NCBI GenBank assembly: GCA_017411745.1
Contig: JAFQPM010000005.1
Coordinates: 5,145-69,144, forward strand
DNA length: 64,000 nucleotides
Origin: Clostridia bacterium
Lineage (GTDB): Bacteria; Bacillota; Clostridia; Oscillospirales; CAG-272
Reading direction: 5' to 3'
This document shows positions 8,907 through 57,209 of this stretch, one piece after another. A model generated the notes under the pieces. The model was not told the origin of the DNA, did not search any database, and saw only the letters and a list, made by a program, of their open reading frames with translations. Each line of letters starts with the position of its first letter. The stretch's first letter is position 1. The translations under genes were made by a program, and so were the position numbers.

Positions 8907-8925
8907 GTATCTTGACGACTTGAAT

Positions 8926-12001: not shown

Positions 12002-12034
12002 TCCATAAAATTTTACGCAAAGGAGGGCAGACGC

Positions 12035-12973
12035 ATGGCTCGCGTAAGGAGAAGAAGCAGATATTCCCGCAGAACAGTTTTGAACCGAGACCGTTCACGC
12101 GCGTGGATCTACGTTATTGCGGTCGCAGCATTCGTCGTGCTTTGCCTGATCGTATCCGTTGGCGTAGGGCTTTTGCTCGCCAAGCAGGCGGAGAAGCATG
12201 AGAACGCTCCCAAATATGACTTTGATCCAAAGCCGTATTATTCGGGGGATAAGATGGTGAAACCCGTCAACGCGCGTCCTTACTTGTTTGGAGATTACGC
12301 AGGGTTGCTGACGGGAATTGGCATTACTGATTTTTCGGTCTGCTTACGTGCTCCCGACGGCTCGCTTACATACGATACCGAATACGACGTTAACTTTGGT
12401 GAAGGGGCCGAAGAAGGGGTTAGCGCGCTTTCAAAATACACGACGTATATTCACGAAAACGGTGGGCGTGTTTGCGCATATTTTTACGTGACTTCATTTG
12501 ACGTTGAGGACGAAAATTTGCGTGAAATATACAAGGCGTATGAGCTGGCGCTTATCAGCGAGGCGGCTCGTAACGGCGCTGACGAGATCATGCTTGTCGG
12601 TCTTGACGTGACAGAGGACAATATTGACGAGATCGAAAAATTCGTCAGTATGGCTTCGTATTCTGCGGAAGCTGCCGTGATCGGTGCGCTTATTTCTCCC
12701 GATACGTTTAAGCTTACGGAAGATGGGATCTATCACGCGGCAAGGTTACGATCGGTATGCGATTTCGTTGCGCTTGATCTGAGAGAGCTTCCCGTTGATG
12801 CCGACAAGGTCGAGATCGAAGGTGAGATAAGTCTGCTTGACTCAACGTTGAGTGAGATGGAATATTATATCTCGTCTTATTCGATGAGGATAGTTTTCTC
12901 CGAGAAAAATTCATCGCTTTGCGACGCGGCGGTCACACTCGGAGTCGAAAACATACAGATAATTGGCGAATGA
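12035..12973 (+). CDS. Hypothetical N-terminally anchored protein (Arg-rich cytoplasmic tail, 1 TM, alpha/beta ectodomain)
   Basis: MARVRRRSRYSRR..., TM WIYVIAVAAFVVLCLIVSVGVGLLL. AAGGAGG RBS present. No motif recognised. Confidence 0.55.
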   Translation: MARVRRRSRYSRRTVLNRDRSRAWIYVIAVAAFVVLCLIVSVGVGLLLAKQAEKHENAPKYDFDPKPYYSGDKMVKPVNARPYLFGDYAGLLTGIGITDFSVCLRAPDGSLTYDTEYDVNFGEGAEEGVSALSKYTTYIHENGGRVCAYFYVTSFDVEDENLREIYKAYELALISEAARNGADEIMLVGLDVTEDNIDEIEKFVSMASYSAEAAVIGALISPDTFKLTEDGIYHAARLRSVCDFVALDLRELPVDADKVEIEGEISLLDSTLSEMEYYISSYSMRIVFSEKNSSLCDAAVTLGVENIQIIGE

Positions 12974-27945: not shown

Positions 27946-28273
27946 CCTCATAGGAATCATTAAAAGGGATATCTGTGCCCAAACCAACACGGATCCTTTT
28001 GAGATTTCTGGATGTTGAATATCTGTTGGGCGTCGCTTTTTTGATCGGTCCCGATTAAAAAGCGGTGGACAACTGATTATATATAGTCGAAGAATTGAGA
28101 TTCGATGCCTGCGGTTTGCGTAGGGTCGCCTGTTCACGGTTAAGGTGAATAGGAGAACCCGCGTGCCCGCTTATGCGGATTCTCGGGGGTTCTGGTTGAG
28201 ATTTTTCGACTATAGGGCTTATGGATTTGCCTTGAAAATCCAAATACACAAAACATTTTTCATGGAGGAAAAA

Positions 28274-31865: not shown

Positions 31866-33431
31866 ATGCGAACCAAAAGAATATTAATGATACTTTTGGT
31901 TGTTGCTCTGACTATTGTTTGCGGAGTTATAAACGTAGCCGCTCAAGATAATGCTAATTCCTTCCAGATGGAAGTGGAGGTTACATCCTCCGCTTCCATG
32001 TCGGAAGAGCTCTGCGTTTTGAAGCCGGGCGATAGCATTGAGGTCAGTGTAATGATCACCGAAAATACTGGTTTGATGAGTAGGATTTTCGCATTTGATA
32101 TCAATTATGATGCGGATGCTCTCGCCCCCGTATTGACGGAAGATGGCGACGTAGATTTTACTGCCTATAACCTTCTGGGCGAAAAAACCGCAGAAAACGT
32201 TTTGGTTGAAGCTCCCGGAAAGGTGTCTTACAGAGTTACCGGCATTGATAATACTGTCAATCCTACCGGTAAACTCGTAACCATAAAATTTGTTGTAAAA
32301 GAAACTTTCAAGGGTACGGTCGGCATAACCGTTGACGGTTATGAGAATATGATCATCTTCCCGAACGGCGAAGGAGTTATACCCGGTGAGAACGTTGTTA
32401 TTAAGGACTCCAATACTCCCGATTACGACGGCGCTACCGTGTACGCTCACCAGTATGGCGAGCCTGTAGTTCAAGAACCCACCTGTACAAGTGAAGGAAC
32501 TGCTACTTATACTTGTACTTGTCATGAGGATCATGTGCTTGTAGTTAAAACTGCTGATATGTTGCCTCACACCCCCGGTGCTGAAGCAACCTGTACTACT
32601 GCTCAGGTATGTACCGGCTGTGGCTTGGAGTTTGTAGCTGCGCTTGGACATACTGCCGGCCCTGATGCGACTTGCACAGAGCCTCAGAGTTGTATCGTTT
32701 GCGGCGAAGAATTGGTTTCTGAAAACGGACACGTTCCTGGTAATGAGGCAACCTGTACTACAAATCAAGTATGTATTGTTTGTGATGTAGAGCTTGTAGC
32801 AGCAAAGGGACACACTCCCGGTGCTGAAGCAACTTGCACAACCAATCAGGTATGTACTGTTTGTGACGTAGAGCTTGTAGCAGCAAAGGGACACACTCCC
32901 GGTGCTGAAGCAACTTGCACAACCAATCAGGTATGTACTGTTTGTGACGTAGAGCTTGCAGCAGCAAAGGGACACACTCCCGGTGCTGAAGCAACTTGTA
33001 CAACCAATCAGGTATGTACTGTTTGTGACGCTGAGCTTGCAGCAGCAAAGGGACACACTCCCGGTGCTGAAGCAACTTGCACAACCAATCAGATATGTAC
33101 TGTTTGTGACGCTGAGCTTGCGGCAGCAAAGGGACATACTCCCGGTGCTGAAGCAACTTGTACGACAGCTCAGATATGTACCGTATGTAACGAGGAGCTC
33201 AATCCTGCAAAGGGTCATACCGAAGAGGTAATTCCTGCAGTTGATCCCACCTATTCTAAGGATGGTTCTACTGAAGGTAAGAAGTGTGCAGTTTGCGGCA
33301 CTATTTTGGAAGCTCCCGAGGTTATTCCCGCTAAGTCTTTGGCTTGGCTCTGGATACTCATCTCGGTAGTAGTTGTTGCAGGTGCAGGCGTAGCAGTATA
33401 TTTCTTCGTATTTAAAAAGAAGATTAAATAA
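31866..33431 (+). CDS. Membrane-anchored cohesin-like protein with nine 27-aa Cys-repeat units (anchoring-scaffoldin-like)
   Basis: Signal peptide. Cohesin-like segment LKPGDSIEVSVMITEN...FAFDINYDADALAPV...GKLVTIKFVVKE. Repeats GHTPGAEATCTTNQVCTVCDVELVAAK. C-terminal TM LAWLWILISVVVVAGAGVAVYFFVF followed by KKKIK. Confidence 0.8.
   Translation: MRTKRILMILLVVALTIVCGVINVAAQDNANSFQMEVEVTSSASMSEELCVLKPGDSIEVSVMITENTGLMSRIFAFDINYDADALAPVLTEDGDVDFTAYNLLGEKTAENVLVEAPGKVSYRVTGIDNTVNPTGKLVTIKFVVKETFKGTVGITVDGYENMIIFPNGEGVIPGENVVIKDSNTPDYDGATVYAHQYGEPVVQEPTCTSEGTATYTCTCHEDHVLVVKTADMLPHTPGAEATCTTAQVCTGCGLEFVAALGHTAGPDATCTEPQSCIVCGEELVSENGHVPGNEATCTTNQVCIVCDVELVAAKGHTPGAEATCTTNQVCTVCDVELVAAKGHTPGAEATCTTNQVCTVCDVELAAAKGHTPGAEATCTTNQVCTVCDAELAAAKGHTPGAEATCTTNQICTVCDAELAAAKGHTPGAEATCTTAQICTVCNEELNPAKGHTEEVIPAVDPTYSKDGSTEGKKCAVCGTILEAPEVIPAKSLAWLWILISVVVVAGAGVAVYFFVFKKKIK
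32565..33212 (+). repeat. Tandem 81-bp in-frame repeat, 8 units (central units near-identical)
   Basis: Unit starts at 32565, 32646, 32727, 32808, 32889, 32970, 33051 and 33132. Units 4-7 differ by only a few nucleotides. Confidence 0.95.
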
Positions 33432-33453
33432 TCTGTTATTTAAATAATTTTTA

Positions 33454-33490
33454 CTACCACTCGAAGCTTTTCGGGTGGTAGTTTTTTTTT
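33454..33490 (+). terminator. Rho-independent terminator
   Basis: ctaccac (33454-33460) pairs with gtggtag (33475-33481), followed by a T9 run. Confidence 0.88.
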
Positions 33491-33501
33491 GCATAAAAAA
33501 G

Positions 33502-33543: not shown

Positions 33544-35019
33544 TTATATTTTCATTACAAATGCAGGGCAGGGCAGATTTGCACCGTTACGCAGGGTGAT
33601 ATCGTCGGGGGTGATATTGGTCGACATTGCGTAGCCGACGTGTGTGGGCTCGACTCCCTCGGGGACTTCGACCTTGACGGTGTATCGCGTGGTAATAGTA
33701 GCGCGAGCCTTCTGTCTGCAATCGTATGCGCCGACGTAGAAGCCGTTGACCTCCATATCAATGCTCTCGGCAGGGGCATGGCCCGATGCAATAAGACCAG
33801 TGTGTATATTTTCAAATGCGATCTCGATCGATTTGCCCCCGTCCTCAAGTCTTGCATACGTGGGCATGGGGGAGTTTGCCTCGGATTCGCTACCGATGCC
33901 GTACTCTTTTGCTAGCGCAAGGCTTGCTACTCGCTCGGCAAGCTCAAGCTTTCGGGGGCTGTGCGCCCAATCCTCGTAGTCGATGGGCGATCCGAGATCC
34001 ATATCTACTGTCAGGGTTGAGTTGGGGATGATCTTAAGCGCGTCGAATTGCTGTGTTCGGACGATATCATGGAAGGGGAAGAACTGTGCTCCCTCGGCAC
34101 GATAGTCGGACAGCTGAATGTTGTAGAAGGGGAAGTTGAAGCCGAAGCGCTCACGCTCGTCTGCAACAAGCACGGCAAGATCATGGGCGTATCTTTCGGC
34201 AAAGCGGCGCTCGATGCCCTCGCTTTCGCCCTGAAAATATATCATTGCCTTGAAGGGAAGCTTTAAGAAGGGGTTGACGAGGGTATTGAAGTATCCCGCC
34301 TCCTTGACGTTCGCGCCGAACGTATAGCCTTCCGAGTGCGCGAGATCTTCGGGGAGATATTCGCGGATGCAAGCGCCGCCTGCGGCGAGTACGATAAGTC
34401 CGAGGGGGATATCGGTCATGCTTGTGATCTTTTTCGCAAAGTACCAACCGAGAGCCGAGAACTCGCGTGATGCTGCTTCATCGGGGCGCTTCCAGCACCA
34501 TTCGGGGCGGATGACGTCGCGCTGGGGCTCGTTGCAGTACTCCTGATTTTCGTAAACTATATGCTGAAACTGCGTGAATACGCGGAAGTTGTCGTTCTCG
34601 GAAAAGTCGACACTTGGGGTCAAAGCGAGGCAGGGAGCTAAGGGAAGTGCCGCGTTGGACTGACCGTGTATCATCCAGACGTCGCCGATGAGGATGTCGT
34701 CAAAGGTGACCTTGTGTCCGCGGTCGTCGTTTATCGTCATCGTCTGACCTTCCCACTCGTATCTGCGAGGGGAGAAGCGGAGAGTCCAATTATTGTCGTC
34801 ATCTACCGTTGCTTGGGCGTATTCGCCCATAAAGTTTGCGCTGACGGTGCTTCCCGGTGTATCCGAAAAGCCCCATACGACGATCTCCTTGTCTCTCTGG
34901 AGCACCATGTGAGATGAGAATGCGCCCGAGACCTTGAATTCGGGGCATTTCCACGTGCTTTTTGATATATTTTCGACCACTTTCTTTTCTTTTGTGGGTA
35001 GTGCAACTGTTGTTTCCAT
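33544..35019 (-). CDS. Sialate O-acetylesterase-like carbohydrate esterase (SASA/DUF303 family)
   Basis: GDVWMIHGQSNA (GQSN motif) and MIYFQGESEG blocks. No signal peptide. Confidence 0.78.
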   Translation of the reverse strand: METTVALPTKEKKVVENISKSTWKCPEFKVSGAFSSHMVLQRDKEIVVWGFSDTPGSTVSANFMGEYAQATVDDDNNWTLRFSPRRYEWEGQTMTINDDRGHKVTFDDILIGDVWMIHGQSNAALPLAPCLALTPSVDFSENDNFRVFTQFQHIVYENQEYCNEPQRDVIRPEWCWKRPDEAASREFSALGWYFAKKITSMTDIPLGLIVLAAGGACIREYLPEDLAHSEGYTFGANVKEAGYFNTLVNPFLKLPFKAMIYFQGESEGIERRFAERYAHDLAVLVADERERFGFNFPFYNIQLSDYRAEGAQFFPFHDIVRTQQFDALKIIPNSTLTVDMDLGSPIDYEDWAHSPRKLELAERVASLALAKEYGIGSESEANSPMPTYARLEDGGKSIEIAFENIHTGLIASGHAPAESIDMEVNGFYVGAYDCRQKARATITTRYTVKVEVPEGVEPTHVGYAMSTNITPDDITLRNGANLPCPAFVMKI

Positions 35020-36416: not shown

Positions 36417-36443
36417 TTTAGGAAAGTTTTTGCCGGAGGGGAG

Positions 36444-36489
36444 TGCAGAGGGGAACCTGCTTTTTTCAAAAAGCGGGTTCCCCTCTGCA
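36444..36489. repeat. Long (about 21 bp) near-perfect palindromic hairpin
   Basis: tgcagaggggaacc-tgcttttt..aaaaagc-gggttcccctctgca. Related in sequence to the hairpin at 44121-44141. Confidence 0.7.
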
Positions 36490-36496
36490 TTTATCA

Positions 36497-37759
36497 TCAA
36501 TAATTATTTCTCTTACGCTTTCTGATGCCGAAGAAGGTGACGAAGCCGACGAGCGAGCCGACGATCACTATACAGATGATATAGATCGTGGGGCTTACGT
36601 CGATATCCGATTTCAGCTCCTCCCAGAGCTCATTGATAAGGGCGAGCTTTTCGGGGGTGAGGTTTTCGTAATAGGTTGCTTCAACGTGGCCAAGGTCATA
36701 CATTTTTTCAAAGGCGTCGTCCTTGATCTCGTTCATATAGTCACGGTATTCCTCGCTCTCAACGACCTTTGCGTTGGGAGAGGCGTAATAGGTATATTCG
36801 GCGTTTGCTATTGCGGGAGCGCCGTATTTTTCATCTATGCTGAGCATAAAGTTGATGTATCGCTCTGCCACCGTTTTATTCGCGGAGGTCTTGGGGATAC
36901 ACATAGCGTCGACGTAGAGGTTTGTACCCTCGGAGGGGTAGAAAAAGTCGAGGCTCTCGTTGTTTTCGTACATAGCCAGGAAGTCGCCTGCATAGTATGC
37001 CGCGATCGCAGCACTTCCGCCCTCCATCTTGTTGAATATCTCGTCCATGACATAGCCCTGAACGATATTCTTTTGAGCCTTGAGCTCCTCGAGCGCGCGT
37101 CTCCACTCGGCTTCGTTGTCGGTGTTGACGTCGATTCCAAGCTTATACTGAGCGGTGCCGAGCGCGTCGCGGGAGTTGTTGAATTGCAGAATGTTGCCCT
37201 TGTACTTTTCGTTCCACATAATATCCCACGAGCCGATATCCTCCTCGTCTACCATGTCGGTATTATAGATGATACCGATCATTCCGTAGAAATAGGGGAC
37301 GGAGTATACGCTGCCCTCGTCGTAGTAGTCGTACTTGGCATTCTCGCCGAAGAACTCGGAGTCGAGATTTTCCTTTGCCAAGGGGATATTATCGTAATTA
37401 AGCGGAGCGAGCTTGTCCTCCTTGATGAGTCGCTCGATCATATAGTCCGAGGGGACTATAATATCGTAGCTGACTGCGCCGCCCGAGAGCTTGGCGTACA
37501 TATCCTCATTGGAGGAGTAGGTCGAATAGCTGACCTTGACTCTTTCGCCGAAGGTGTCGAAGTACCATTTTTCAAACTGCTCGTTGGAGTCTACCGAATC
37601 CTCGCTTCCGTCGGAGATATATTCTCCCCAGTTGTAGACGTAGAGCGTAGTCACGTCACCGCCGTCGTTTGCCTTGTCACAGGCAAAGAGGCAACAGCAG
37701 GATGCGGCAAGGATTGCGAGAAGGAGCAGTGCGGAGATGATTTTTTTGATATTTTTCAT
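36497..37759 (-). CDS. potD: Spermidine/putrescine ABC transporter substrate-binding lipoprotein with an extra C-terminal TM helix
   Basis: Lipobox LFAC; LYVYNWGEYISDG and the PotD-like body. C-terminus PTIYIICIVIVGSLVGFVTFFGIRKRKRNNY. Confidence 0.86.
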   Translation of the reverse strand: MKNIKKIISALLLLAILAASCCCLFACDKANDGGDVTTLYVYNWGEYISDGSEDSVDSNEQFEKWYFDTFGERVKVSYSTYSSNEDMYAKLSGGAVSYDIIVPSDYMIERLIKEDKLAPLNYDNIPLAKENLDSEFFGENAKYDYYDEGSVYSVPYFYGMIGIIYNTDMVDEEDIGSWDIMWNEKYKGNILQFNNSRDALGTAQYKLGIDVNTDNEAEWRRALEELKAQKNIVQGYVMDEIFNKMEGGSAAIAAYYAGDFLAMYENNESLDFFYPSEGTNLYVDAMCIPKTSANKTVAERYINFMLSIDEKYGAPAIANAEYTYYASPNAKVVESEEYRDYMNEIKDDAFEKMYDLGHVEATYYENLTPEKLALINELWEELKSDIDVSPTIYIICIVIVGSLVGFVTFFGIRKRKRNNY

Positions 37760-38572
37760 TTACGCCACCCCATTTCTCTTTTTCTTCTTGTTGACCGAGC
37801 CCGTAAAGTTGACTGCGAGCAGGATCGCAAGAATGATTGCTACGATAAGGGCGCAGAGCGCGTACATACTGAACTTGACGTTGTGTACGGTCTGGTTATA
37901 AACGTAGAGAGGAAGTGTCTGGAAATTCGGCGAGCTTACGAAATGGCTGATGACGAAGTCGTCGAGCGAGAGCGTGAAGCTCATCATAAGCGCCGATACG
38001 ATGCCGGGCACTATTTCGGGAAGCTCTACCGAGAAGAATGCGCGGGCGGGAGTACATCCCAGATCCTGTGCCGCTTCGGAGAGCGATTTATCAAGCTGAT
38101 TGAATCTCGGCATAATGGAGAGCAGAGCATAGGGCAGGTTGAAGGTAGTGTGCGCTATGAGCATTGTTCCGAAGCCGAAGAATTGCTTTGCGCCAATGAA
38201 ATTGGCTACCGCCACGAAGAGCAGCATCATAGATACGCCCGTGACGATATCGGGGTTCATCATAGGTATGTTGGTGACCGATTTGACCGCGCCCTTGACA
38301 TACTTGTTTCTCATGTGGTGAAGTCCGAGCGCCGCAAAGGTTGCTATGCCCGTTGCTATGACCGAGGAGCAGACCGCGAGAATAAGAGAGTTCTTCAGTG
38401 CGGTCAGAGCCTCTTCGTCGCGGAAGAGCTCGCCGTACCATTTGAGCGATATGCCCGTGAACTCACTGAGCGAGCCGCCGTCGTTAAACGAGAAAACGAT
38501 GAGCACCACGATGGGCGCGTAGAGCAGGGCGAATATGATGAACATATAGAATTTTGACAGGAATTTCATCAT
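37760..38572 (-). CDS. potC: Spermidine/putrescine ABC transporter permease
   Basis: Six-TM permease with an EAA-like loop (LSEAAQDLGCTPARAFFSVELP). The ATG at 38572 overlaps the potB stop (ATGA). Confidence 0.9.
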   Translation of the reverse strand: MMKFLSKFYMFIIFALLYAPIVVLIVFSFNDGGSLSEFTGISLKWYGELFRDEEALTALKNSLILAVCSSVIATGIATFAALGLHHMRNKYVKGAVKSVTNIPMMNPDIVTGVSMMLLFVAVANFIGAKQFFGFGTMLIAHTTFNLPYALLSIMPRFNQLDKSLSEAAQDLGCTPARAFFSVELPEIVPGIVSALMMSFTLSLDDFVISHFVSSPNFQTLPLYVYNQTVHNVKFSMYALCALIVAIILAILLAVNFTGSVNKKKKRNGVA

Positions 38573-45371: not shown

Positions 45372-45478
45372 CTCAAAAACGTCGATTTTTGGCGTTTTAG
45401 CCTGCTAAAATATGCCATTTTAATTTGAAATTTTTTGTGAATTGTTTGATAACTAATTTGTTATAAGGATGTGTAAGG

Positions 45479-46219
45479 ATGAACATTTACGACAACGAAA
45501 GCATGGGCAAGATGACCGAAAAGCAGAGTATTTCTCCCGCGGTCATTCGCAGACTGCCGAGATACTATCGCTATCTTTGCGAGCTGATCGCAAAGGGAAA
45601 GACTCGCATAAGCTCGGGTGAGCTGGCTCACATGATGAACGTTACCGCTTCGCAGATCCGTCAGGATCTTAACTGCTTCGGCGGCTTCGGTCAGCACGGT
45701 TACGGCTACAACGTGAACTATCTTTTCGCAAAAATAAGCGAGATACTCGGGGTCAGTGCGGGCTTTAACGCTATTATAATCGGCGCGGGCGACCTTGGCC
45801 GTGCGCTCGTGCACCTGTCGATGTTCGAAAAGAGAGGCGTTGATATCAGCGCGCTCTTTGACACGGGTAACGATGCCGAGGGCAAGGATTGCGCGGGCGT
45901 GCCCGTATATCCTATTTCCCAGCTCGAGAGCTTCTGCGCGGAGAACAAGGTCGATATTGCGGTGCTCGCTTGTCCCAAGCAGTACGTTAAGGAGATCGCG
46001 GACAGGTGCGTTAAGCTCGGTCTGAAGGGCCTTTGGAACTATATGGGAGTTGAGCTTGACTACACCGACGACGATATTATCGTTGAAAACGTGCATCTTG
46101 GCGACTCGCTGATGATAATGAATTGCCGCATCTGTCGCAATATGAGCGACGACAAGGCTTCGTCCGACGGCGACGTTTCGGAGAATGAATGGCAGGACGA
46201 CAAGGAGAGTGAATTTTAA
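45479..46219 (+). CDS. rex: Redox-sensing transcriptional repressor Rex
   Basis: ISPAVIRRLPRYYRYLCEL...SSGELAHMMNVTASQIRQDLNCFGGFGQHGYGYNV, plus the Rossmann motif IIIGAGDLGRAL. Confidence 0.92.
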   Translation: MNIYDNESMGKMTEKQSISPAVIRRLPRYYRYLCELIAKGKTRISSGELAHMMNVTASQIRQDLNCFGGFGQHGYGYNVNYLFAKISEILGVSAGFNAIIIGAGDLGRALVHLSMFEKRGVDISALFDTGNDAEGKDCAGVPVYPISQLESFCAENKVDIAVLACPKQYVKEIADRCVKLGLKGLWNYMGVELDYTDDDIIVENVHLGDSLMIMNCRICRNMSDDKASSDGDVSENEWQDDKESEF

Positions 46220-48235: not shown

Positions 48236-48303
48236 TATATTGGTCGTTTTTGTGTGCATACTACTCTTGAATTCACTTCGAATTGCGAAAGGATTTTGTA
48301 GAT

Positions 48304-48750
48304 ATGCAAGAATTAAAAACCAAAGAAGCGGAAATGCTCGAACAGTTATATAAAAACGTTAAGATGGGCTCTGATTCTATCGTGAAGCTGCTCCCGAAGG
48401 TCAGCGATGGCAAGTTCAAGACCGATATTACCGATCAGCTCAACGGTTATGAATCGTTGGCATCGAAAATAAAGGCGCACCTTAAGAATATGGGTGTTGA
48501 AGCCAAGGAAGAAAACGCTATGGTAAAGCTCTGGAGCAATATCGGAATATCCGTCAACGCTATGATGGACTCCACTGACAGCCATCTGGCGCAGATGATC
48601 TCCGAGGGCTCGAATATGGGTATCACGGACTCGATCAAGCTGCTTCGTGAATATGAGAACACTAACGTATCCGAGGCCGCTTTGAAGCTTGTTCGCGAGG
48701 TCATTGAATTTGAGGAGAACAATCTCGAGCGCGCAAAAAATTATCTTTGA
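48304..48750 (+). CDS. Hypothetical cytoplasmic all-helical protein
   Basis: 148 aa with helical heptad-like composition and no motif recognised. The ATG at 48304 is internal to track ORF 48283-48750. Confidence 0.55.
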   Translation: MQELKTKEAEMLEQLYKNVKMGSDSIVKLLPKVSDGKFKTDITDQLNGYESLASKIKAHLKNMGVEAKEENAMVKLWSNIGISVNAMMDSTDSHLAQMISEGSNMGITDSIKLLREYENTNVSEAALKLVREVIEFEENNLERAKNYL

Positions 48751-48766: not shown

Positions 48767-48800
48767 GGGCATCCTGCGGTTGCAGAATGCCCGTTTTTTG
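48767..48800. terminator. Bidirectional terminator between convergent genes
   Basis: gggcat-cctgc..gcaga-atgccc hairpin, with an A-run upstream and gttttttg downstream. Confidence 0.85.
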
Positions 48801-48810
48801 TTATTTGAAA

Positions 48811-51800
48811 TTATTCGCCGAGAGATTCGAGGTATGCGCTCGTATCCTCGCACATTGCTACGAATGCGATATCGATTGTAAGTCCCGTGGGAATTCCGTC
48901 CGGGTGGTTGAGCGCGTCAAGACGGATATATTTAGCGATATATTCGCCGTTTGCGTCAGGTGTGAAGGTGCCGCCGCTACCGAGTGTAGCATCGAGAATT
49001 ACGAGATGCCATTCACCGTCTGCTACAAGAAGCTCCTTGCCGAGCGTGTTGATATGGTCACCTGCGGTTGCATCGGTGTTGTTGGTGCTCGTGAAGCACT
49101 CGATGAAAAGATTTTCGGTAATCAGAGCCGCATGCTCGGCGGCAATGCGATACTTAATTACGATATACTGACCCGTCACTTCGTTTCCTCCCGCGTATAT
49201 GTTGAGGAAGGCTTCGGGTATGCTCTTTTCCGTGCCGATGGTCACGTAGCTTTCGTCGTCTGCAAGAGTTTTGGAAACTCCCGAGTTTCCGAGTGCTGCA
49301 GCGATGGTCGAGGAATCGATGAAGAGATCAAAATAGTCTGCGTCACTTGCTTCACCCGTTCCCGAGGAAACGTAGATCACGGAGCTGGTGTTTTCGTTTT
49401 GTACGAGGTCTACGGACACCATATCCTTATTGATCTCGAGAGCTGCATCAAGGCTGTCGCAGAGAGCTACGTACTGAAGATCAATATACGAGGTAGCAGA
49501 CATAGCTGCGTTGAATATATCGAATCTGAAGTATTTGGTAGAATAGCTGCCGTCTTCGTTTGCAACGAAGTTTTCAAGCTTGAATGCCGCAAGATCGATG
49601 ACCATAACGTGCCATTCGCCGTCTTTCTTGACATCGCGGGACAGCATCCAGTCCTTAGAGCCGATGATGTCAGTCGCTTCGGTTCCGATGTATACCTGGA
49701 AGTGACCGGGATCGGTATCGTTAGTAGTGGGAACTCTGTACTTGACGACTACGTATCCGCCTGTGGTTTCGGCAGTTATGGGGAGAGAGAAGTACTTTTC
49801 TGCGCTTGTGCCGTCGCCGTAGATACGAACGCAGGTGTCGTCCTCTTCAAGAGCAGCGCCTGTGATTACCGAGATGTCGGATGCGCCCCAATAGTTCTCT
49901 ATATCGGGGGTGTCGTCGGGCTTTTCGGGTTCGACCCAACCCGTGAATTCCTCGGAGGCTTCTACCTTGAAGGTTCTTGTCTGGTCGCCTGTGAGCGTGG
50001 TTACGAAGGAGTAGGAGAAGGTTCCGTCTCCGTCGTAGTGCACGGCATAGCCGTCGTAGAGGTGAGCGTTGCCATATTTGTCGGGAGTCGTCGCGGAGCT
50101 TACGTCAACGAGCACCCATTCGCCGTCAACGAGCTCGTAAAGCTTGGGAGCTGTGAGAAGATCAAATCCGTATACACGGAAGGTCACGTTGTTCTCTCCG
50201 CCCGAGAGGGTAAAGGTTGCGTCCTTACCATTGGTGGTCTTGATCGAGGGGAGGAACTCGCTATCAAGAACGGTTGCGTTCTCAACTGCGGTTGCCTTGA
50301 AGGGATCGAGAAGCGAGTTTTCACGAACGTCTCTTACGTTCTGGTCGGGGGCAACGGAGGTGTCACCGTTTCTGTACGCCTGGTTCCACCAAGGCATAAT
50401 GATCGCGTTGATGGTGACGGTCGCTCCTGCCTTGATCGTCTGCGTGCCGTCGATGTTGAGGGTAAGCGATCCCGTGCCGTCCTTCTCGTATACTGCAAAG
50501 TTGACACCGTCGTCGCTGCCGTCGGCGTTAAGGTCGACGAAGGAGTTATAGATAAGGAAGGAAACGTCTGCCATCTGCGTGCCGGGGGTATTGGAGGTCT
50601 CGTACATATCGAAATAGGGACAATCGGTGCCGAGCACGTACTTGGTTCCTTCGGTCATGGTAGCTATTTCAGCAACTGCGCCGTTTTCGCCCCAATAGCC
50701 AAGCTTTGCGTAGCCATCGCCGTATGCGCGGACTGCGTAGAAGGAGAAGTTCTTGTAGAACTCGTTGATGGTAATATCCTCCTTGACGGTGTACTGCATC
50801 GTGTAGTACGCTCTGTTCTCGTCGAGCTGAGGCATTTCCATATGAGTGTAGGTAACCTCGATCTTGCCGTCGTCGGAGAAGTAGGTCAGGTCGATATCTG
50901 CGTAGGTAGGACCTGCCGCCTCGATGTTGTTGACGATGCTATCCGAATTCACGAGGTTTCCGTCGCTGTCGGTATACTGCAGGAAGTAATGGAATCCGCC
51001 GTTGTCGTGCTGGGGATCTCCTGCCCAAAGGGGAGCAGACGCTGCTCTGTGGTCGGGGAGGGTCTGGAGGTCCTTATTGTAAACGTAGTAGTTCGCAATA
51101 CAGTTACTCTCGGTTACACCTGTAGAAAGGTGATAGTAGGGAGCAAAGAACTGGATCGAGGATATCTGCTTAAGCGGATATTTACCCCAGTTCATATAAA
51201 GCTGAAGCACGGTGAGCTCCTGAGTCTCTCCTGCGGAAAGTGCTACGGGGAATCTTACCTCACTGTACTTGATATCGCCCCAAGCCCAGATCGGCTCTTC
51301 AAACTCGTTTGCGAAGTTCTTGGAGACCTCTACGGGTATGGGAAGCATCATATCGTTACCGTCGAGCACTGCACCGCACTCGATGCTGGTAGAGTATGTG
51401 TATGCGAGAACGTACATATTACGGTCGTAGTCATCACCCTTTACGGAGAAGGATACTGCGCCGTGGAAGTTCTGTTCGTGATAGTATGCGGTGTTGAAGC
51501 CTATGTTTTCAGCTACGGTGAACGCGTAGATTCCGCGGAGACCGTCGTATCCGTCGAAGGTTGCGTTTACGGTCTTGTCGGTGTTGATAACGATATTTTC
51601 CTTGGTAAGAGGATTGCGCTCTATGTACGCTTCCTCAAGGAATTCGGCGAAATCGTGAGAAGCGTCGGTGTATATTCTCTGACCGAAGAAGTAGTCGGTC
51701 TTGGAGCTGTAGATGTCGGTGCTGGTGCCCTGGAAGCCTGCTACCTCCTGCTGTGTGTATACGGTCTTGTGAGCATCAAGCTTTCCTCCCTCGGGAACTG

Positions 51801-53121
51801 TGGCCTGCTTGATGACGTAGTTGCCGTCCTCAAGAGTAACGGTAAGAGTGCCGCTGGTTTCGTCGGTTGCGAGAATGTATCCGAAGATACCTGTACCCTT
51901 GATGTCGAAGCCTACGTATTCTGCGCTTGCCCAGTCGATGCCGTTAAGATCGTAGTGGAGACCGTTCTTGTCGTATACTACGAGCTTATCTACGGTGTTT
52001 TCCGCGATCTTGGTGATCATACCGATCTCCTTGATGCCCGTTACGTCTTCTGTTGCGATGAGGCGGGCGATCTGATGGAGCTTATCGGTGTAGGTGTGGA
52101 GGTTTCTGTCAAGCAGGATCTTGGGAGCTCCGTCGTCGTTTACGTTGACGAGCTTGACGCTCGAGACCTCGATCGTTTCGCCTACCTCGCCGTTAAAGTC
52201 GAAGCGGAAGCCGTTGATGTTTCCGTCGAAATTCTTAACGGTGCCCTGATCCAAGCGAATGGTGTAGGTGTGGAACTCACCGTCGTTCTTGGTGTAGAAG
52301 GTTACGTGCTGATCGTTGGTGTAGCTGTTGATACCGCCTGCGGAGAAGTATACGTCGACGTTGGTGGTCGAGGTGACCTTCATAGTGATCTGAAGCGCGT
52401 TTGCCTCGGATGTGGGAACCTTGAACGTGTCTATTTCCGTGAAGAAATAGGGGTCGCGGTTGCTTTCAATCGTGGATTTGAGAACGCCGCCCGTAGGATC
52501 GGGTCTGGTCATATCGTTCGACTTCTTAAACAGCTTCAAGCTGATATCCTTAACATCGGATATGGTCGTATCTCCTGCGAAGTTCTGTCCGTAAAGGCGG
52601 ATATCATAGTAGTAGTATCCGTAACGGAAGATGTTCGACTCCGCGTCGTAGAACGAGCCCGAGGAGTAGTAGGTCTTGCCGTTCTCCATAGCAACGTACA
52701 CGTCCATAGTGTCGGTCACGTATGCGTTACCCTTCTTATTTGTGATGGTAACGAGCTGTTTTTCGGTGCTCGTGAGGGGATAGTTGAGATTCATATTACC
52801 GTTCTCTACGCGATAGTGCTCACGCGCAGGATCGGTGAAATACGAGGTCACGCCGTTTTTGAGATTGTCGGCGTTCTCAATAAGCTGGGCATAGGGACCT
52901 TCGAGCTTGGGGTCGTTCGATACGGTGGTCTCCTCCTCGGTGGTCTCCTCGTCACCTTTTGTGGTGTCTTCGGTGCCACTTGTGGTTCCCTCGGTGGTGT
53001 TTTCCGAGCCTTGTGTTGTGGTCTCATCGCCTCCCGTGGGGGTCTTGCACGCTGCCAACATGCCCGCGGTCATGACTGCAACGAGAAGGAGAGCGATAAG
53101 CGCTAAGCTTCTTTTTTTCAT
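48811..53121 (-). CDS. Giant lipoprotein of unknown function (1436 aa) with Thr/Glu-rich linker and two paralogous C-terminal ~150-aa modules
   Basis: Lipobox MKKRSLALIALLLVAVMTAGMLAAC; AGAGAGGA RBS; consensus promoter upstream. The repeated C-terminal signature is KYR...DGEWH...KY-R-D...ID..VA-C. Confidence 0.82.
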   Translation of the reverse strand: MKKRSLALIALLLVAVMTAGMLAACKTPTGGDETTTQGSENTTEGTTSGTEDTTKGDEETTEEETTVSNDPKLEGPYAQLIENADNLKNGVTSYFTDPAREHYRVENGNMNLNYPLTSTEKQLVTITNKKGNAYVTDTMDVYVAMENGKTYYSSGSFYDAESNIFRYGYYYYDIRLYGQNFAGDTTISDVKDISLKLFKKSNDMTRPDPTGGVLKSTIESNRDPYFFTEIDTFKVPTSEANALQITMKVTSTTNVDVYFSAGGINSYTNDQHVTFYTKNDGEFHTYTIRLDQGTVKNFDGNINGFRFDFNGEVGETIEVSSVKLVNVNDDGAPKILLDRNLHTYTDKLHQIARLIATEDVTGIKEIGMITKIAENTVDKLVVYDKNGLHYDLNGIDWASAEYVGFDIKGTGIFGYILATDETSGTLTVTLEDGNYVIKQATVPEGGKLDAHKTVYTQQEVAGFQGTSTDIYSSKTDYFFGQRIYTDASHDFAEFLEEAYIERNPLTKENIVINTDKTVNATFDGYDGLRGIYAFTVAENIGFNTAYYHEQNFHGAVSFSVKGDDYDRNMYVLAYTYSTSIECGAVLDGNDMMLPIPVEVSKNFANEFEEPIWAWGDIKYSEVRFPVALSAGETQELTVLQLYMNWGKYPLKQISSIQFFAPYYHLSTGVTESNCIANYYVYNKDLQTLPDHRAASAPLWAGDPQHDNGGFHYFLQYTDSDGNLVNSDSIVNNIEAAGPTYADIDLTYFSDDGKIEVTYTHMEMPQLDENRAYYTMQYTVKEDITINEFYKNFSFYAVRAYGDGYAKLGYWGENGAVAEIATMTEGTKYVLGTDCPYFDMYETSNTPGTQMADVSFLIYNSFVDLNADGSDDGVNFAVYEKDGTGSLTLNIDGTQTIKAGATVTINAIIMPWWNQAYRNGDTSVAPDQNVRDVRENSLLDPFKATAVENATVLDSEFLPSIKTTNGKDATFTLSGGENNVTFRVYGFDLLTAPKLYELVDGEWVLVDVSSATTPDKYGNAHLYDGYAVHYDGDGTFSYSFVTTLTGDQTRTFKVEASEEFTGWVEPEKPDDTPDIENYWGASDISVITGAALEEDDTCVRIYGDGTSAEKYFSLPITAETTGGYVVVKYRVPTTNDTDPGHFQVYIGTEATDIIGSKDWMLSRDVKKDGEWHVMVIDLAAFKLENFVANEDGSYSTKYFRFDIFNAAMSATSYIDLQYVALCDSLDAALEINKDMVSVDLVQNENTSSVIYVSSGTGEASDADYFDLFIDSSTIAAALGNSGVSKTLADDESYVTIGTEKSIPEAFLNIYAGGNEVTGQYIVIKYRIAAEHAALITENLFIECFTSTNNTDATAGDHINTLGKELLVADGEWHLVILDATLGSGGTFTPDANGEYIAKYIRLDALNHPDGIPTGLTIDIAFVAMCEDTSAYLESLGE

Positions 53122-53172
53122 AATCAGGTCCTCTCTTTTTTTGTAATAAAGATGTATAATCCCTATGGAAAT

Positions 53173-53201
53173 ATTATACCTTTTTTTATATAATATGTCA
53201 A
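53173..53201 (-). promoter_or_regulatory. Perfect consensus sigma-A promoter (TTGACA-17-TATAAT) of the giant lipoprotein gene
   Basis: On the minus strand: TTGACA (53201-53196), 17-nt spacer, TATAAT (53178-53173). Confidence 0.72.
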
Positions 53202-53251: not shown

Positions 53252-53683
53252 TTATTTTAGAAAATCGTACAGGTGCTCGATCGCGACTTTGTATCCTTCA
53301 AAGCCAAGTCCCATAACGGTTTTTATTGCCGTGAGGGAGATATACGAGTGCTTTCTGAATTCGTCGCGAGAGTTTATGTCAGAAATATGCACCTCGACGG
53401 TTGGTATCGAAACCGCTTTGAGTGCGTCGAGAATGGCTACGGAGGTGTGCGTATAAGCGGCGGGATTTATTACTATTCCGTCGAATTTTCCGTAAGCATC
53501 CTGTATCTTATCGACTATTGCACCCTCATGATTGGATTGGAATATCTCGTGGTCAACTCCAAGCTCTTTGCAGGTATCGTCTATCAGCGCACAGAGTGAT
53601 GCGTAATTTTGATTTCCGTATATTTCGGGCTCGCGGAGTCCGAGAAGATTGAGATTGGGGCCGTTTATTATCAATATTTTCAT
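53252..53683 (-). CDS. aroQ: Type II 3-dehydroquinate dehydratase
   Basis: MKILIINGPNLNLLGLREPEIYG...HISDINSRDEFR. Confidence 0.95.
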   Translation of the reverse strand: MKILIINGPNLNLLGLREPEIYGNQNYASLCALIDDTCKELGVDHEIFQSNHEGAIVDKIQDAYGKFDGIVINPAAYTHTSVAILDALKAVSIPTVEVHISDINSRDEFRKHSYISLTAIKTVMGLGFEGYKVAIEHLYDFLK

Positions 53684-53687
53684 TTTT

Positions 53688-54920
53688 CTATGCCTTTTCG
53701 TACTTTTTTAATATTTCGGAGGCGCATTCCTCGGGTGTCACGTTGTTTGACACCTCAAAGTCGCATATCTCGCGGTAGAGGGGAAGTCGTGTGCGATACA
53801 TCTCCTCAAGCTTATTTTGTTGGGAGAGTGGGCGGTCATTGGTGGGTAGGCTATCAAGGCTGCGGTGAATGAAGAATATCTTGCCGTTTTGGCGCAGGGG
53901 GTCGAAGTTTTCGCGTCTTGTGACGACTCCGCCGCCGGTTGAGATTATCATTCCACTCATTTTGCCCGCGTTTTTGACCTCTGCGTGCTCGATCTCGCGG
54001 AATTTTTCTTCTCCGTCGGTCTTTATTATCTCGGCTGGGGTTCTTCCTTGCGAGGCGGTTATCATTTCGTCGGTGTCGATGAATTTTCGGCCCGTCGCCT
54101 CGGAGAGAAGCTTGCCGACGGTGGTTTTGCCGCTGCCCGGCATTCCAACGAGGATTATATTGCCGGTTTGTTTGGCGATCAGAGTGTTTATGCGGTCTAT
54201 TTCGCTGTCCGCTATCTTTTCGTCAAGGAAAAACTCGCACGCCCTTTTGGCTTGGGCGACGAGCATTGGAAGTCCGTTTACATAGGGTATTCCGAGGTGC
54301 TCGGCATCCAGCAAAAGCTTGGTCTTTGCAGGGTTGAAGATCATATCGAGAACGCCTTTGCAGCTCTTGAACTTGTCAAGAGTGACGGGGGATTCTCCAT
54401 TTGTTCTCGGGTACATTCCAACGGGGGTGCAGTTGATTATTACGTCGGTGTCGGGGCATTTTTCGTAGACGTTCTCGTAATTGATCTCGCCCGAGCGCGA
54501 AACGAAGGTGATCATTTTTGCGCCGAGGTCCTCACTTACGGTCTTGGCGGTCAGAGACGCGCCGCCCGTGCCGAGAATCAGGATGTTTTTATTCTTTATC
54601 TCTATTCCGCTGTGGTTTACGGTGTATAAAAAGCCGTAGTAGTCGGTATTATAGCCGCACTTCTTGCCGTTTTTCTTCTTTACGACGGTGTTTACCGCGC
54701 CGATCCGTCGAGCTTCGGCGGAGATCTCGTCGAGGTAGGGCATTACGGTCTTTTTATAGGGTATGGTTACGTTTATGCAGTCGTATCTGTCGCTCTCGAG
54801 GAAGCCTTTGACCTCGCTCTCCTGCATCTCGAAAAGCTCGTAGGAATAGTCGGCGAGCTCTTTATGTATCTGCGGAGAAAAGCTATGGCCGAGCTTCTCG
54901 CCTATAAGACCGCATCTCAT
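53688..54920 (-). CDS. aroE-aroK: Fused shikimate dehydrogenase / shikimate kinase
   Basis: N-terminal GLIGEKLGHSFSPQIH and NVTIPYK (AroE). C-terminal NIILVGMPGSGKTTVGKLLSEATGRKFIDTD (AroK P-loop). ATG 54920 preferred over 54941. Confidence 0.9.
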   Translation of the reverse strand: MRCGLIGEKLGHSFSPQIHKELADYSYELFEMQESEVKGFLESDRYDCINVTIPYKKTVMPYLDEISAEARRIGAVNTVVKKKNGKKCGYNTDYYGFLYTVNHSGIEIKNKNILILGTGGASLTAKTVSEDLGAKMITFVSRSGEINYENVYEKCPDTDVIINCTPVGMYPRTNGESPVTLDKFKSCKGVLDMIFNPAKTKLLLDAEHLGIPYVNGLPMLVAQAKRACEFFLDEKIADSEIDRINTLIAKQTGNIILVGMPGSGKTTVGKLLSEATGRKFIDTDEMITASQGRTPAEIIKTDGEEKFREIEHAEVKNAGKMSGMIISTGGGVVTRRENFDPLRQNGKIFFIHRSLDSLPTNDRPLSQQNKLEEMYRTRLPLYREICDFEVSNNVTPEECASEILKKYEKA

Positions 54921-54967
54921 ATTTTGTTTTCCTGTTATCATTTTTTCTGCTTTCTGCCGTCTTGGCG

Positions 54968-56116
54968 TCAGACTATCTCGTTATATGCTCCAAGTAAGCG
55001 AAGCTGTTCTCCTCGTGCTTCAAGCTCGCAGAGCAACGGCTTTAGCTGATCCGAATAGACCGATAGGGTAAAATCAAAGTAGAACATTGATTCAAAGTCG
55101 CGCTCGGGAATGGGTGTGGACTCGAGCTTGGTCATATTCACCCCTAGGGAATTGAAGCAGGAGAGCACGTGATACAGCGCGCCCGGCTTATTATGGGTTA
55201 CGAGCATTATTGAGAATTTGTCCGCACCCGGATAGATCTCGGGCTCCTTGGAGATGCAGATGAATCTCGTGTAGTTGTTGCCCATGTCCTGAACCGCGCC
55301 TGCGAGTGTATCGAGTCCGTAAAGGTCGGCACAGAAGCGAGAGGAGAGGGCGGCGAGATCCTGTCTGCCCGATTCGGCAACGGCTTTTGCCGCCATCGCG
55401 GTGTTTGCGACGACGGTTATTTTTACGTCTCCAAGACTTTTCAGAAAGCTCTCGCTTTGATTGATCGCTTGCTCGTGTGAGACTATCTCTTTGATATCCG
55501 AGAGCTTTGCGCCGCGGTTTGCGAGCAGACAATGGTCGATCTTGAGTCGGAGCGATCTGACTATATGGAATTTATGCTTTATCATAAGCTCGTAGACCTT
55601 TTTGACCGAGCCTGCGGTGCTGTTTTCGATCGGCAGCACTCCGTAGCGACATTCGCCGTTTTCGATTGCGGTGAATACGCTGTCGAAGGTGGGGCAGTAG
55701 CTTATTGATGGCAGCTCGAAGAGCTTTTCAGCCGCGATCTGCGAATACGCGCCCTCAACGCCCTGACAGGCTACCTTGGCGCGCACGGGGAAGGTCTTTG
55801 CGGTAGATTTGAGTGATTTTTGTATGCCGTCGTATATCTCGGACGAGCCGCCGAGCCTTGTGTGCTGATAGGCGCGCGAGACGTCGAGCATCGTGTGGTA
55901 GAGCGTGCGCGCGTAGCTGTCGAATTCTTCTCCTGCCATATCCGACACGCGACAGAGCAGGGATCTTTCGCGAGCCGCATCAAGCACGGGCAGACCGTGC
56001 TCTCTTTTATATTCGGCAACGCTTGCGGCTATTCCCATACGCTTGCGGAAAAGTGCAACTATTTCTTCGTCGGTTTCGTTTATTTCTTCTCTTAATTTGT
56101 TGAGGTCGAGTTCCAT
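54968..56116 (-). CDS. pheA: Bifunctional chorismate mutase / prephenate dehydratase (P-protein)
   Basis: CM helix LNKLREEINETDEEIVALFRKRM; PDT VACQGVEGAYSQIAA; ACT-like C-terminus. AAGGAG lies 7 nt before ATG 56116. Confidence 0.9.
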   Translation of the reverse strand: MELDLNKLREEINETDEEIVALFRKRMGIAASVAEYKREHGLPVLDAARERSLLCRVSDMAGEEFDSYARTLYHTMLDVSRAYQHTRLGGSSEIYDGIQKSLKSTAKTFPVRAKVACQGVEGAYSQIAAEKLFELPSISYCPTFDSVFTAIENGECRYGVLPIENSTAGSVKKVYELMIKHKFHIVRSLRLKIDHCLLANRGAKLSDIKEIVSHEQAINQSESFLKSLGDVKITVVANTAMAAKAVAESGRQDLAALSSRFCADLYGLDTLAGAVQDMGNNYTRFICISKEPEIYPGADKFSIMLVTHNKPGALYHVLSCFNSLGVNMTKLESTPIPERDFESMFYFDFTLSVYSDQLKPLLCELEARGEQLRLLGAYNEIV

Positions 56117-56129
56117 TTTTTGCTCCTTG

Positions 56130-57209
56130 TTATTTATCAAGCATCATATCGACAAGCGCGATCGCTGCCGCCGCCTCAAATACGGGGACTGCTCGCGGGA
56201 CTACGCAGGGGTCGTGTCTGCCGCTGATCGTCAGCTTGACGTTTTCCTTGCGCGAGAGTGACACGCTATCCTGCTCCTTGCCGATAGAGGGGGTGGGTTT
56301 GAGCGCGGCGCGGAAGATCAGGGGCATTCCGTTTGTCATGCCGCCGAGAATCCCTCCGCAGTTGTTGGTTTTGGTATATATGCGGCTGCCATCGGTCTCG
56401 AACGGGTCGTTATTTTGCGAGCCGAGCAGGGCTGACGAGCCAAATCCGAGTCCGAATTCAATGCCCTTAACGGCAGGAATGCCGAAGACTATCGAGGAGA
56501 TCCTGCCCTCGACTCCGCAAAACATATGCTCTCCCCAGCCGACAGGAAGTCCTATAACCGCACATTCAACGGTGCCGCCGACAGAGTCGCAGTCAAGTCT
56601 GGCTTTTTCGATGGTGTCGCGCATTTTTGCGCCTGCTTCCTCACTTATTGTGGGGAAGATGTGGGAGTGGAGTGCGTCAAGATCGGATTTTGAGACGTTG
56701 ACCTTGTCAAAGCTCTCGTCGGTGACGTTGCCTACGCTTGAAATGTGCGCGGCGATGCTTATGCCTCGCTTTTCAAGCATTTGCAGGCAGATACTGCCCG
56801 CGATGCACATGGGGGCGGTGAGTCTGCCCGAGAAGTGACCGCCTCCGCGCAGGTCGACCTGATCTCCGTATTTCATTCTCGCAGCATAGTCAGCGTGGGA
56901 GGGACGGGGGATATCGACGAGTGAATTGTAGTCGCTCGAATGCTGATTCGTGTTATAGATGACTGCCTCTATTCGCTCGCCCGTGGTTACTCCGTTTTCG
57001 TCGAGTCCCGAGAGAAAGACCGGCTTGTCGGGTTCTTTTCTTTTCGTGGAATAGGGATCCTTGCCCGGCGCGCGACGCGCCATAAAGGCGGCGAGGGCAG
57101 TCATATCCACGGGTTCGCCTGCGGGGATACCGTCAAGTATCATTCCGATCTTTTCGTCGTGCGAGCCGCCGTAGATCTTTAGTTTTAAGTTGATTCCGTA
57201 CGTATTCAT
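56130..57209 (-). CDS. aroC: Chorismate synthase
   Basis: GGSHDEKIG..., RPSHADY, GGGHFSGR, GGILGGMTNG. Confidence 0.95.
   Translation of the reverse strand: MNTYGINLKLKIYGGSHDEKIGMILDGIPAGEPVDMTALAAFMARRAPGKDPYSTKRKEPDKPVFLSGLDENGVTTGERIEAVIYNTNQHSSDYNSLVDIPRPSHADYAARMKYGDQVDLRGGGHFSGRLTAPMCIAGSICLQMLEKRGISIAAHISSVGNVTDESFDKVNVSKSDLDALHSHIFPTISEEAGAKMRDTIEKARLDCDSVGGTVECAVIGLPVGWGEHMFCGVEGRISSIVFGIPAVKGIEFGLGFGSSALLGSQNNDPFETDGSRIYTKTNNCGGILGGMTNGMPLIFRAALKPTPSIGKEQDSVSLSRKENVKLTISGRHDPCVVPRAVPVFEAAAAIALVDMMLDK

Follow-up and report, generated by a model that had tools for sequence, protein, structure and literature searches.

A large family of predicted surface lipoproteins in uncultured gut Clostridia, a candidate for a new family of glycan-cleaving enzymes

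Family 4 polysaccharide lyases (PL4) are all-β three-domain proteins; PL4 and PL26 lyases, which are built from β-sandwich domains, together with SGNH esterases of the carbohydrate esterase family 12 (CE12) type, belong to rhamnogalacturonan-degrading systems. OpgG and OpgD (MdoG and MdoD) are β-1,2-glucanases of the Gram-negative periplasm that belong to glycoside hydrolase (GH) family 186, with D388 as the general acid in EcOpgD (PMC10514313). Here we analyse a protein whose predicted core has its best structural matches in OpgG and OpgD. It is encoded in a 64,000-nt stretch of a Clostridia bacterium genome (GenBank assembly GCA_017411745.1, contig JAFQPM010000005.1, positions 5,145 to 69,144; hereafter the window). 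The gene (48811..53121, minus strand, as are all features of this gene given below) codes for 1436 aa plus the stop codon and is the longest open reading frame (ORF) of the window. An earlier reading of the bare DNA letters (the sequence-only reading) had already singled it out as the largest gene, and regarded its product as a likely major glycan-binding or glycan-degrading surface protein, or an adhesin. We suggest, with a probability of roughly 0.5, that it is a surface-anchored glycan-cleaving enzyme (hydrolase or lyase) of an undescribed family.

The protein family, its invariant polar cluster and its predicted fold

Judged by the sequence searches, the protein belongs to a large, uncharacterised and previously undescribed family, in agreement with the sequence-only reading. 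Pfam gives no match at E ≤ 1 for the 1436-aa protein apart from sub-threshold noise on the signal peptide and linker, NCBIfam gives nothing above noise, and searches of all PDB sequences with the single sequence and with three different family profiles return nothing relevant. Clear hits to a characterised enzyme or adhesin family, which would speak against the earlier proposal, are thus absent at the sequence level from Pfam, NCBIfam and PDB. A description of the family was not found in literature searches. A word-indexed search yields at least 420 relatives. The best 120 of them share 37-99% identity with the window protein along the full length and are without any precomputed Pfam domain; all that have a name are called "hypothetical protein" and come from Oscillospiraceae, Ruminococcaceae or Clostridia metagenome-assembled genomes (MAGs). 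When a profile built from 15 trimmed cores is used for an exhaustive HMMER search, 2434 cluster representatives are found at E ≤ 1e-3, 872 at E ≤ 1e-10 and 347 at E ≤ 1e-30. A scan of GTDB species representatives yields 416 encoding stretches, all from uncultured Clostridia/Eubacteriales MAGs of animal guts; sheep, roe deer, cattle and horse are among the hosts. The number of family loci in a single MAG reaches at least 12, and tandem arrays are frequent. The nearest genome is MAG RGIG6414 from a sheep rectum (94% identity across the entire protein and 96% in the best tblastn segment), which holds at least five family copies.

The members exhibit a common modular architecture, in which a lipobox signal peptide and an acidic linker rich in Ser and Thr precede a core of about 1000 aa, with the C-terminal modules after it. 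A distant subfamily (29-37% identity, 820-970 aa) lacks the first ~265 residues of this core. The minimal conserved unit is therefore about 700 aa long and corresponds here to residues 333-1040 (50002..52125), the unit common to all relatives (profile positions ~265-973).

The sequence-only reading recognised no catalytic motif in the body of the protein. No known motif is indeed present, but the family alignments reveal a dense, family-wide cluster of invariant polar residues, a putative active site, between residues 567 and 770 (50812..51423). It consists of R567, E581, K601, N602, D616, Q652, S654, Y662, H664 and S666, followed by E671, C674, D690, R692, S695, Q704, E762, D767, E768 and R770. 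All of them are unchanged in 25 sequences that are 30-49% identical, and in 20 sequences including the far subfamily. In 105 closer sequences, where many polar positions do not vary, they are largely unchanged as well. The alignments with the distant subfamily also show conserved aromatic and Gly/Pro positions. The invariant residues sit in the motifs PLKQISSIQF-x-x-PYYHLSTGVTETNC, LPDHR-x-x-SAP and THMEMPQTDENR, which lie partly in loops of lower model confidence. Such a dense set of acid, base, His and Cys residues, maintained independently of the paralogue, looks typical of an active site or a catalytic metal site, and differs from what binders diversifying with their ligands usually exhibit. 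That these ~20 polar residues persist without change at 30% identity is our main reason for favouring an enzyme.

An AlphaFold2 model of residues 68-1075, built from a 50-sequence alignment, is all-β with a mean predicted local distance difference test score (pLDDT) of 88.3 and a predicted template modelling score (pTM) of 0.87. The DSSP string of the model resolves the core into an Ig-like sandwich, a large β-sandwich domain and a C-terminal Ig-like sandwich. The best PDB matches of the core in Foldseek are E. coli OpgG, OpgD/MdoD and Xanthomonas OpgD, all GH186 (E-values from 8e-6 to 6e-4), with alignments of 440-490 columns covering essentially the entire OpgG chain. They are followed by the N-terminal β-sandwich regions of GH36 α-galactosidases, GH85, the P1 domain of YidC, and the carbohydrate-binding modules (CBMs) CBM86, CBM29 and CBM4. 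The predicted core thus resembles OpgG/OpgD in fold and layout (a large β-sandwich, then an Ig-like sandwich), a resemblance at the fold level only that carries no evidence of homology. Alignment of the family profiles with E. coli OpgG by hhalign gives probabilities of 0.04 and 0.11. With these values, no Pfam MdoG match and no hit among PDB sequences, membership in GH186 is rejected at the sequence level. PL4 and PL26 structures are not among the 50 best Foldseek matches to PDB, and the sequence searches give no relevant hit to any PDB chain.

Two paralogous C-terminal modules had been proposed from the letters, and they are readily confirmed. The Smith-Waterman alignment of module 1 (residues 1085-1250; 49372..49869) with module 2 (residues 1261-1436; 48814..49341) scores 144, while shuffled sequences score 31 ± 5 (z = 21), and the two modules have in common the motifs G-Y-[IV]-V-[IV]-KYR, DGEWH, KY[FI]R[FL]D and ID-x-x-[YF]VA[LM]C. 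A third, weaker copy (z = 6.5 against module 1) is found at residues 226-330 (52132..52446). This copy lies within the N-terminal accessory β domains (residues 68-332; 52126..52920), which are all-β with high pLDDT in the model and absent from the short subfamily. The model of residues 1060-1436 has a pLDDT of 93.5. The best Foldseek match of the C-terminal pair is the tandem CBM22 of Xyn10C (E-value = 4.5e-6), with reelin repeats, surface glycan-binding protein B (SGBP-B) and CBM51 also among the matches. Template modelling (TM) scores are 0.55-0.60 for the single C-terminal modules against CBM86 and CBM32, and 0.55-0.67, normalised to the CBM, for all three modules against single CBMs. In the predicted structures, the C-terminal modules therefore have the β-jelly-roll fold of known CBMs; Pfam gives no match at E ≤ 1 that would place them by sequence in CBM4/9, 22, 29, 32 or 86. 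The number of copies of this module (170-180 aa) varies from 0 to ~5 among homologues.

The N-terminus conforms to a bacterial lipoprotein by sequence criteria (n-region, h-region and lipobox), and we predict that the protein is lipidated and exposed at the surface. The translation begins with MKKRSLALIALLLVAVMTAGMLAAC, in which a charged n-region (MKKR) and a hydrophobic h-region (LALIALLLVAVMTAGM) precede the lipobox L-A-A-C (53047..53121), matching the pattern [LVI][ASTVI][GAS]C with Cys25 as the would-be lipidated residue. Equivalent lipoboxes are found in nearly all of the ~40 homologues sampled. A low-complexity linker rich in Thr, Glu, Gly and Asp follows directly (residues 26-67; 52921..53046), and homologues possess comparable S/T/E/D-rich linkers of variable length. 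The lipobox, the linker and the richness in Tyr, Asp, Asn and Thr (Thr 149, Asp 122, Tyr 92 and Asn 88 in the 1436 aa) had all been correctly noted in the sequence-only reading. The protein exhibits no dockerin or cohesin (by Pfam), and no SLH or LPXTG.

Known domains are found in giant and distant relatives, limited to dockerin, cohesin, CBM_4_9, LRR_5 and PKD. Dockerin type I occurs in members of the distant subfamily and of others, some of which also have cohesin, CBM_4_9 or BspA-type leucine-rich repeats (LRR). As relatives carry dockerin or cohesin, the same core would be displayed either on a lipid anchor or on a cellulosome-like scaffold. The giant members (P0186, 2970 aa; P0196, 2896 aa; P0202, 4372 aa; and 2957 aa at 3436..12309 of locus L011) presumably consist of the core with long runs of the C-terminal module or of other modules. 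Pfam finds no domain in P0202 or in the 2957-aa protein of L011.

The same structural evidence bears on a non-catalytic alternative, in which the core and the CBM-like modules only bind plant or host glycans. Such a surface glycan-binding protein or adhesin would capture substrate for other enzymes or attach the cell to particles, as do the SGBPs of Bacteroides or cellulosomal anchoring components. SGBP-B structures are among the Foldseek matches of both the core and the C-terminal models, the CBM-like modules are repeated and vary in copy number, adhesin repeats of the BspA LRR type are fused to some relatives, and the family is multi-copy with tandem arrays. Moreover, in GH36, GH31, GH38 and YidC the supersandwich does not catalyse but serves as a carbohydrate-binding or structural domain. 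Binding sites, however, usually diversify with their ligands, while here ~20 polar or charged residues stay invariant at identities as low as 30%. Nor is a known catalytic domain that such a binder could serve found in the giant or distant relatives scanned, or fused elsewhere in the family. We consider this alternative rather unlikely, though it is the one that survives best.

Genomic neighbourhoods and proposed function

In every case, the window copy or its orthologue has the aro operon on one side and, on the other, a DUF2383-like gene with dnaI, DnaB_2, rex and tsaD beyond it. No conserved operon partner emerges from this synteny, and the context of the window copy is uninformative about function. 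The contexts of two distant members (P0264, P0251) are likewise of the housekeeping kind and uninformative. In another genus, the slot downstream of aroQ is occupied by four tandem paralogues of 1484, 1046, 1439 and 1427 aa (L005; 1736..18790 of JAFTRQ010000177.1, GCA_017462125.1), each with its own lipobox and a near-consensus promoter (10-12 of 12 positions).

A survey of 74 family loci, in which flanking ORFs were clustered and 105 immediate neighbours annotated, provides a more specific picture for other paralogues. GH78 α-L-rhamnosidase is the immediate neighbour in 8 of the 105 cases, followed by a TMEM164-like membrane protein (7), AraC regulators (6) and GH25 (3); L-rhamnose isomerase (RhaA), GH106 rhamnosidase and a SASA-type esterase account for 2 each, and GH106 is present within 6 kb at 10 loci. 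GH78 adjoins at least six differently organised paralogue loci. The order GH106, TMEM164-like gene, family gene, GH78 is found in L022, L025 and L055, and L027 exhibits the order GH106, family gene, GH78 with no TMEM164-like gene called (~2500..11700 in all four). In L039 (2151..14350) the order is a 2-keto-3-deoxy-6-phosphogluconate (KDPG) aldolase/PfkB, a GDSL esterase, the family gene, AraC, an unknown gene and GH78. In L077 the family gene is convergent with GH78 and GH3, and in L078 and L079 (4066..8820) RhaA lies directly upstream of the family gene. GH20, GH123, GH2 and GFO/IDH/MocA oxidoreductases are also found near paralogues. The recurring theme of the paralogue loci is the use of rhamnose-containing glycans. 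From the established functions of GH78, GH106 and RhaA, the glycans in a herbivore gut are most plausibly pectic rhamnogalacturonans or arabinogalactan-type gums. The TMEM164-like protein, seen at 7 loci, is an unexplained partner of the family genes. It should also be noted that a SASA-type esterase stands directly upstream of giant members (2800-2950 aa) in L011, L016, L033 and L059, and that the window has a SASA-type carbohydrate esterase gene of its own (33544..35019, minus strand, 491 aa).

The link of the family to glycans is supported indirectly by the CBM-like folds, by the GH-type β-sandwich matches, by the relatives with dockerin, cohesin or CBM_4_9, and by the rhamnosidase, RhaA and AraC neighbours of paralogues. 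Rhamnose-containing pectic glycans are possibly the substrate, as the class best supported for the family. The proposal of the sequence-only reading thus holds in part, as far as a predicted surface lipoprotein with a probable glycan connection; of the roles that it listed, degradation is favoured here over binding and adhesion.

In the reading that we prefer, Cys25 would be lipidated and the protein tethered to the outer face of the cytoplasmic membrane of an uncultured bacterium of the herbivore hindgut, with the flexible Thr/Glu-rich linker spacing the all-β multi-domain protein from the membrane. The three CBM-like modules (residues 226-330, 1085-1250 and 1261-1436) would hold a polysaccharide, which the large β-sandwich of the core would cleave with the invariant cluster of residues 567-770, its active site being formed from E581, K601, D616, H664, E671, C674, D690, R692, E762, D767 and R770. 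Exo-enzymes such as GH78 and GH106 would finish the products. The expansion of paralogues and the variable number of modules may tune the substrate range, different paralogues covering different substrates. A more specific version, which we put forward tentatively and would not expect to hold in every part, is that the ~700-residue core (residues 333-1040) founds a new GH or PL family. Its catalysis would take place on a β-sandwich through the invariant Glu/Asp/His/Cys/Arg/Lys cluster. The family would have expanded massively in uncultured herbivore-gut Clostridia with lipid or dockerin anchors, and would be specialised for rhamnose-containing pectic glycans such as rhamnogalacturonan.

Several points weigh against a catalytic role. 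Taken as a whole, the similarity of the core to OpgG/OpgD is low (9% identity and a TM score of 0.36 normalised to OpgG), and no sequence link to any characterised enzyme is obtained from the Pfam, NCBIfam and PDB searches or from hhalign against OpgG. The β-supersandwich is non-catalytic in most enzymes containing such a fold, and dockerins occur on non-enzymes too. The window copy and its orthologues reside in a housekeeping neighbourhood without a carbohydrate-active enzyme (CAZyme) or transporter partner. The rhamnose association concerns other paralogues, which are 40-50% identical to the window protein, and is partly non-independent, some of the loci being orthologous.

If the core is catalytic, it would represent a new family of plant cell-wall enzymes, possibly for pectin or rhamnogalacturonan, and would join GH186 as a second case of glycans being cleaved on a β-sandwich scaffold. 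It would also fill gaps in the predicted polysaccharide-degrading capacity of uncultured gut Clostridia. Up to a dozen or more family copies are present in Clostridia of the herbivore hindgut and rumen that are known only from metagenomes; no database names the family, and no structure closely resembles the core. Highly expanded in organisms that were never cultured, these proteins are a concrete candidate for a new family of enzymes.

Two further alternatives can be weighed. The protein could be an abundant structural surface coat (S-layer-like) or a member of an antigenically variable surface family with no specific glycan function. This would fit the gene's own strong promoter and terminator, its strong codon bias and its housekeeping location, and also the large number of paralogues in a genome, all of them behind near-consensus promoters; the Thr-rich linker might then be glycosylated. 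A strictly conserved polar cluster, however, is unexpected of a coat or of variable antigens, the dockerin-bearing relatives and the CAZyme and rhamnose-pathway neighbours point to the use of polysaccharides, and consensus promoters are common in these genomes. We regard a coat or antigen as improbable.

Slightly more improbable still is a surface enzyme acting on a non-glycan substrate, for instance a Cys/His-dependent peptidase or amidase directed at proteins or cell-wall material. A thiol-type catalytic set could be made up of the invariant C674, H664, D690 and R692, and a few loci have GH25 lysozyme and transglutaminase-like genes as neighbours. Nevertheless, no peptidase or amidase fold or family is found among the Pfam, NCBIfam and Foldseek matches, the accessory modules are CBM-like, and the dominant neighbours are glycosidases and sugar regulators.

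Transcription unit, codon usage and the opposite frame

A σ70-type promoter, TTGACA-17-TATAAT, is located upstream of the gene (53201..53173), followed by a ribosome-binding site read from the sequence (GAGAGGA, 53135..53129, 7 nt 5' of the ATG). An intrinsic terminator hairpin of 11 pairs (7 G-C) with a T-run is found 3' of the stop codon (48792..48767). The downstream neighbour (48283..48750, plus strand) is convergent, and the upstream neighbour on the same strand is aroQ (53252..53683), the final gene of the aro operon. The lipoprotein gene is a self-contained monocistronic unit, because it has its own promoter and terminator, faces a convergent gene downstream, and is preceded by the aroQ end of the upstream operon. 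In that operon, shikimate dehydrogenase is fused to shikimate kinase (53688..54941, minus strand, 417 aa) and chorismate mutase to prephenate dehydratase (54968..56140, minus strand, 390 aa); both fusions and the gene order are kept in the relatives L001, L006 and L029.

The sequence-only reading had taken the perfect promoter and the absence of TTA, CTA and TCA codons after codon 6 as marks of strong expression. The promoter does match the consensus at 12 of 12 positions. In related genomes, 13 of 72 family genes have such a promoter in the 160 nt that precede them, but so do 21 of 160 control genes (13%), the controls being non-family genes of the related loci L006-L079 with an upstream gap of at least 100 nt. 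Near-consensus promoters, too, are frequent 5' of family genes and of control genes alike. This weakens the perfect promoter as a sign of exceptional expression; promoter strength is unreadable from the consensus match alone in these MAGs.

The codon observation is correct as well, the lone codon of this kind being a TTA at codon 6. TTA, CTA and TCA make up 1.1% of the codons of the 44 other likely genes of the window, from which ~16 would be expected here (P ~ 1e-7). However, orthologues of 94%, 81% and 82% protein identity exhibit 6-8 such codons each after codon 6, mostly TCA and at non-conserved positions, so that the close orthologues lead to an expectation of only 6-8. Family genes generally hold two to three times fewer of these codons than their neighbours. 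The complete absence thus marks the far end of a bias seen across the genome and the family, and orthologues do not keep it. The fraction of two-fold NNY codons ending in C is 0.76 in the lipoprotein gene, the maximum of the window (tied with one other gene), and its preference for AAG and CAG is also at the window extreme. This usage fits translational selection, which by itself does not prove high expression. As to the claim of a major, highly expressed protein, only codon usage suggests that the gene is probably well expressed; the perfect promoter is not distinctive, and the missing codons are less remarkable than at first sight.

Because TTA, CTA and TCA are absent from the lipoprotein gene after codon 6, a frame of 1439 codons is open on the opposite strand (48787..53106, plus strand). 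That this frame is a real overlapping gene, which would itself explain the missing codons, can be dismissed: its uninterrupted length in DNA of ~49% G+C and the ~16 interruptions predicted from window-average codon use would favour it, but the frame is broken 6-8 times at non-conserved positions in the three orthologues, it has no Pfam match, the three codons are rare genome-wide, and other long mirror ORFs (500-1000 codons) lie opposite well-annotated genes such as those of a solute-binding protein (SBP) and a permease. The frame is a side effect of codon bias. Because TTA, CTA and TCA are only 1.1% of the window codons, stops in antisense frames are rare throughout the genome, a trap for gene callers. 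Mirror ORFs of 211-1076 aa (36443..38557, plus strand; 28301..31531, 31884..33494 and 45461..46096, minus strand) are located opposite other genuine genes, these being SBP and ATP-binding cassette (ABC) permease genes, a 1235-aa ORF, a cohesin gene and rex.

The 1235-aa ORF (28145..31852, plus strand) is the second-largest gene of the window; its product is Cys-rich, has no Pfam or NCBIfam match, and its coding sequence contains one TTA/CTA/TCA codon. Immediately after it lies a gene for a 521-aa cohesin-domain protein (31866..33431, plus strand), and the two may form a cellulosome-like scaffold pair. The giant ORF pair at this place (28145..31852, plus strand, and 28301..31531, minus strand) was considered as a paralogue of the lipoprotein and rejected, as neither exhibits similarity to it.

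Comparison with known systems

Like OpgG/OpgD, the window protein is predicted to be all-β and extracytoplasmic, with a large β-sandwich of the catalytic type followed by a small Ig-like sandwich. It differs from them in belonging to Clostridia rather than Proteobacteria, in being three times larger, in its predicted lipid anchor and in its CBM-like modules; in addition, the genomic associations of the family point to rhamnose-containing glycans and not to β-1,2-glucan. The modules resemble jelly-roll CBMs (the CBM22 tandem of Xyn10C, 4xup; CBM86, 6sgf; CBM32, 2wdb; CBM29; CBM4) in fold, in tandem repetition and in variable copy number. In contrast to known CBMs, they have motifs of their own (G-Y-V-V-KYR, DGEWH, KYFRFD) and only 12-15% identity, and are candidate binders by fold only.

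Cellulosomal enzymes and the SGBP-B proteins of gut bacteria are also multi-modular, extracellular and present as many paralogues, and relatives of the window protein carry dockerin_1, cohesin and CBM_4_9. The window protein itself, unlike cellulosomal components, has no dockerin or cohesin and would be anchored through its lipobox, and the family has no known catalytic module. As in rhamnogalacturonan-degrading systems, paralogues adjoin genes for GH78, GH106, RhaA, a GDSL esterase and enzymes of the KDPG-aldolase/2-keto-3-deoxygluconate (KDG)-kinase type, whereas the window copy does not have such neighbours and, in the PDB sequence searches, exhibits no similarity to PL4 or PL26. The window protein is best described as the representative of a new family within a known kind, that of surface-displayed, CBM-decorated glycan-processing proteins, rather than as a categorically new system.

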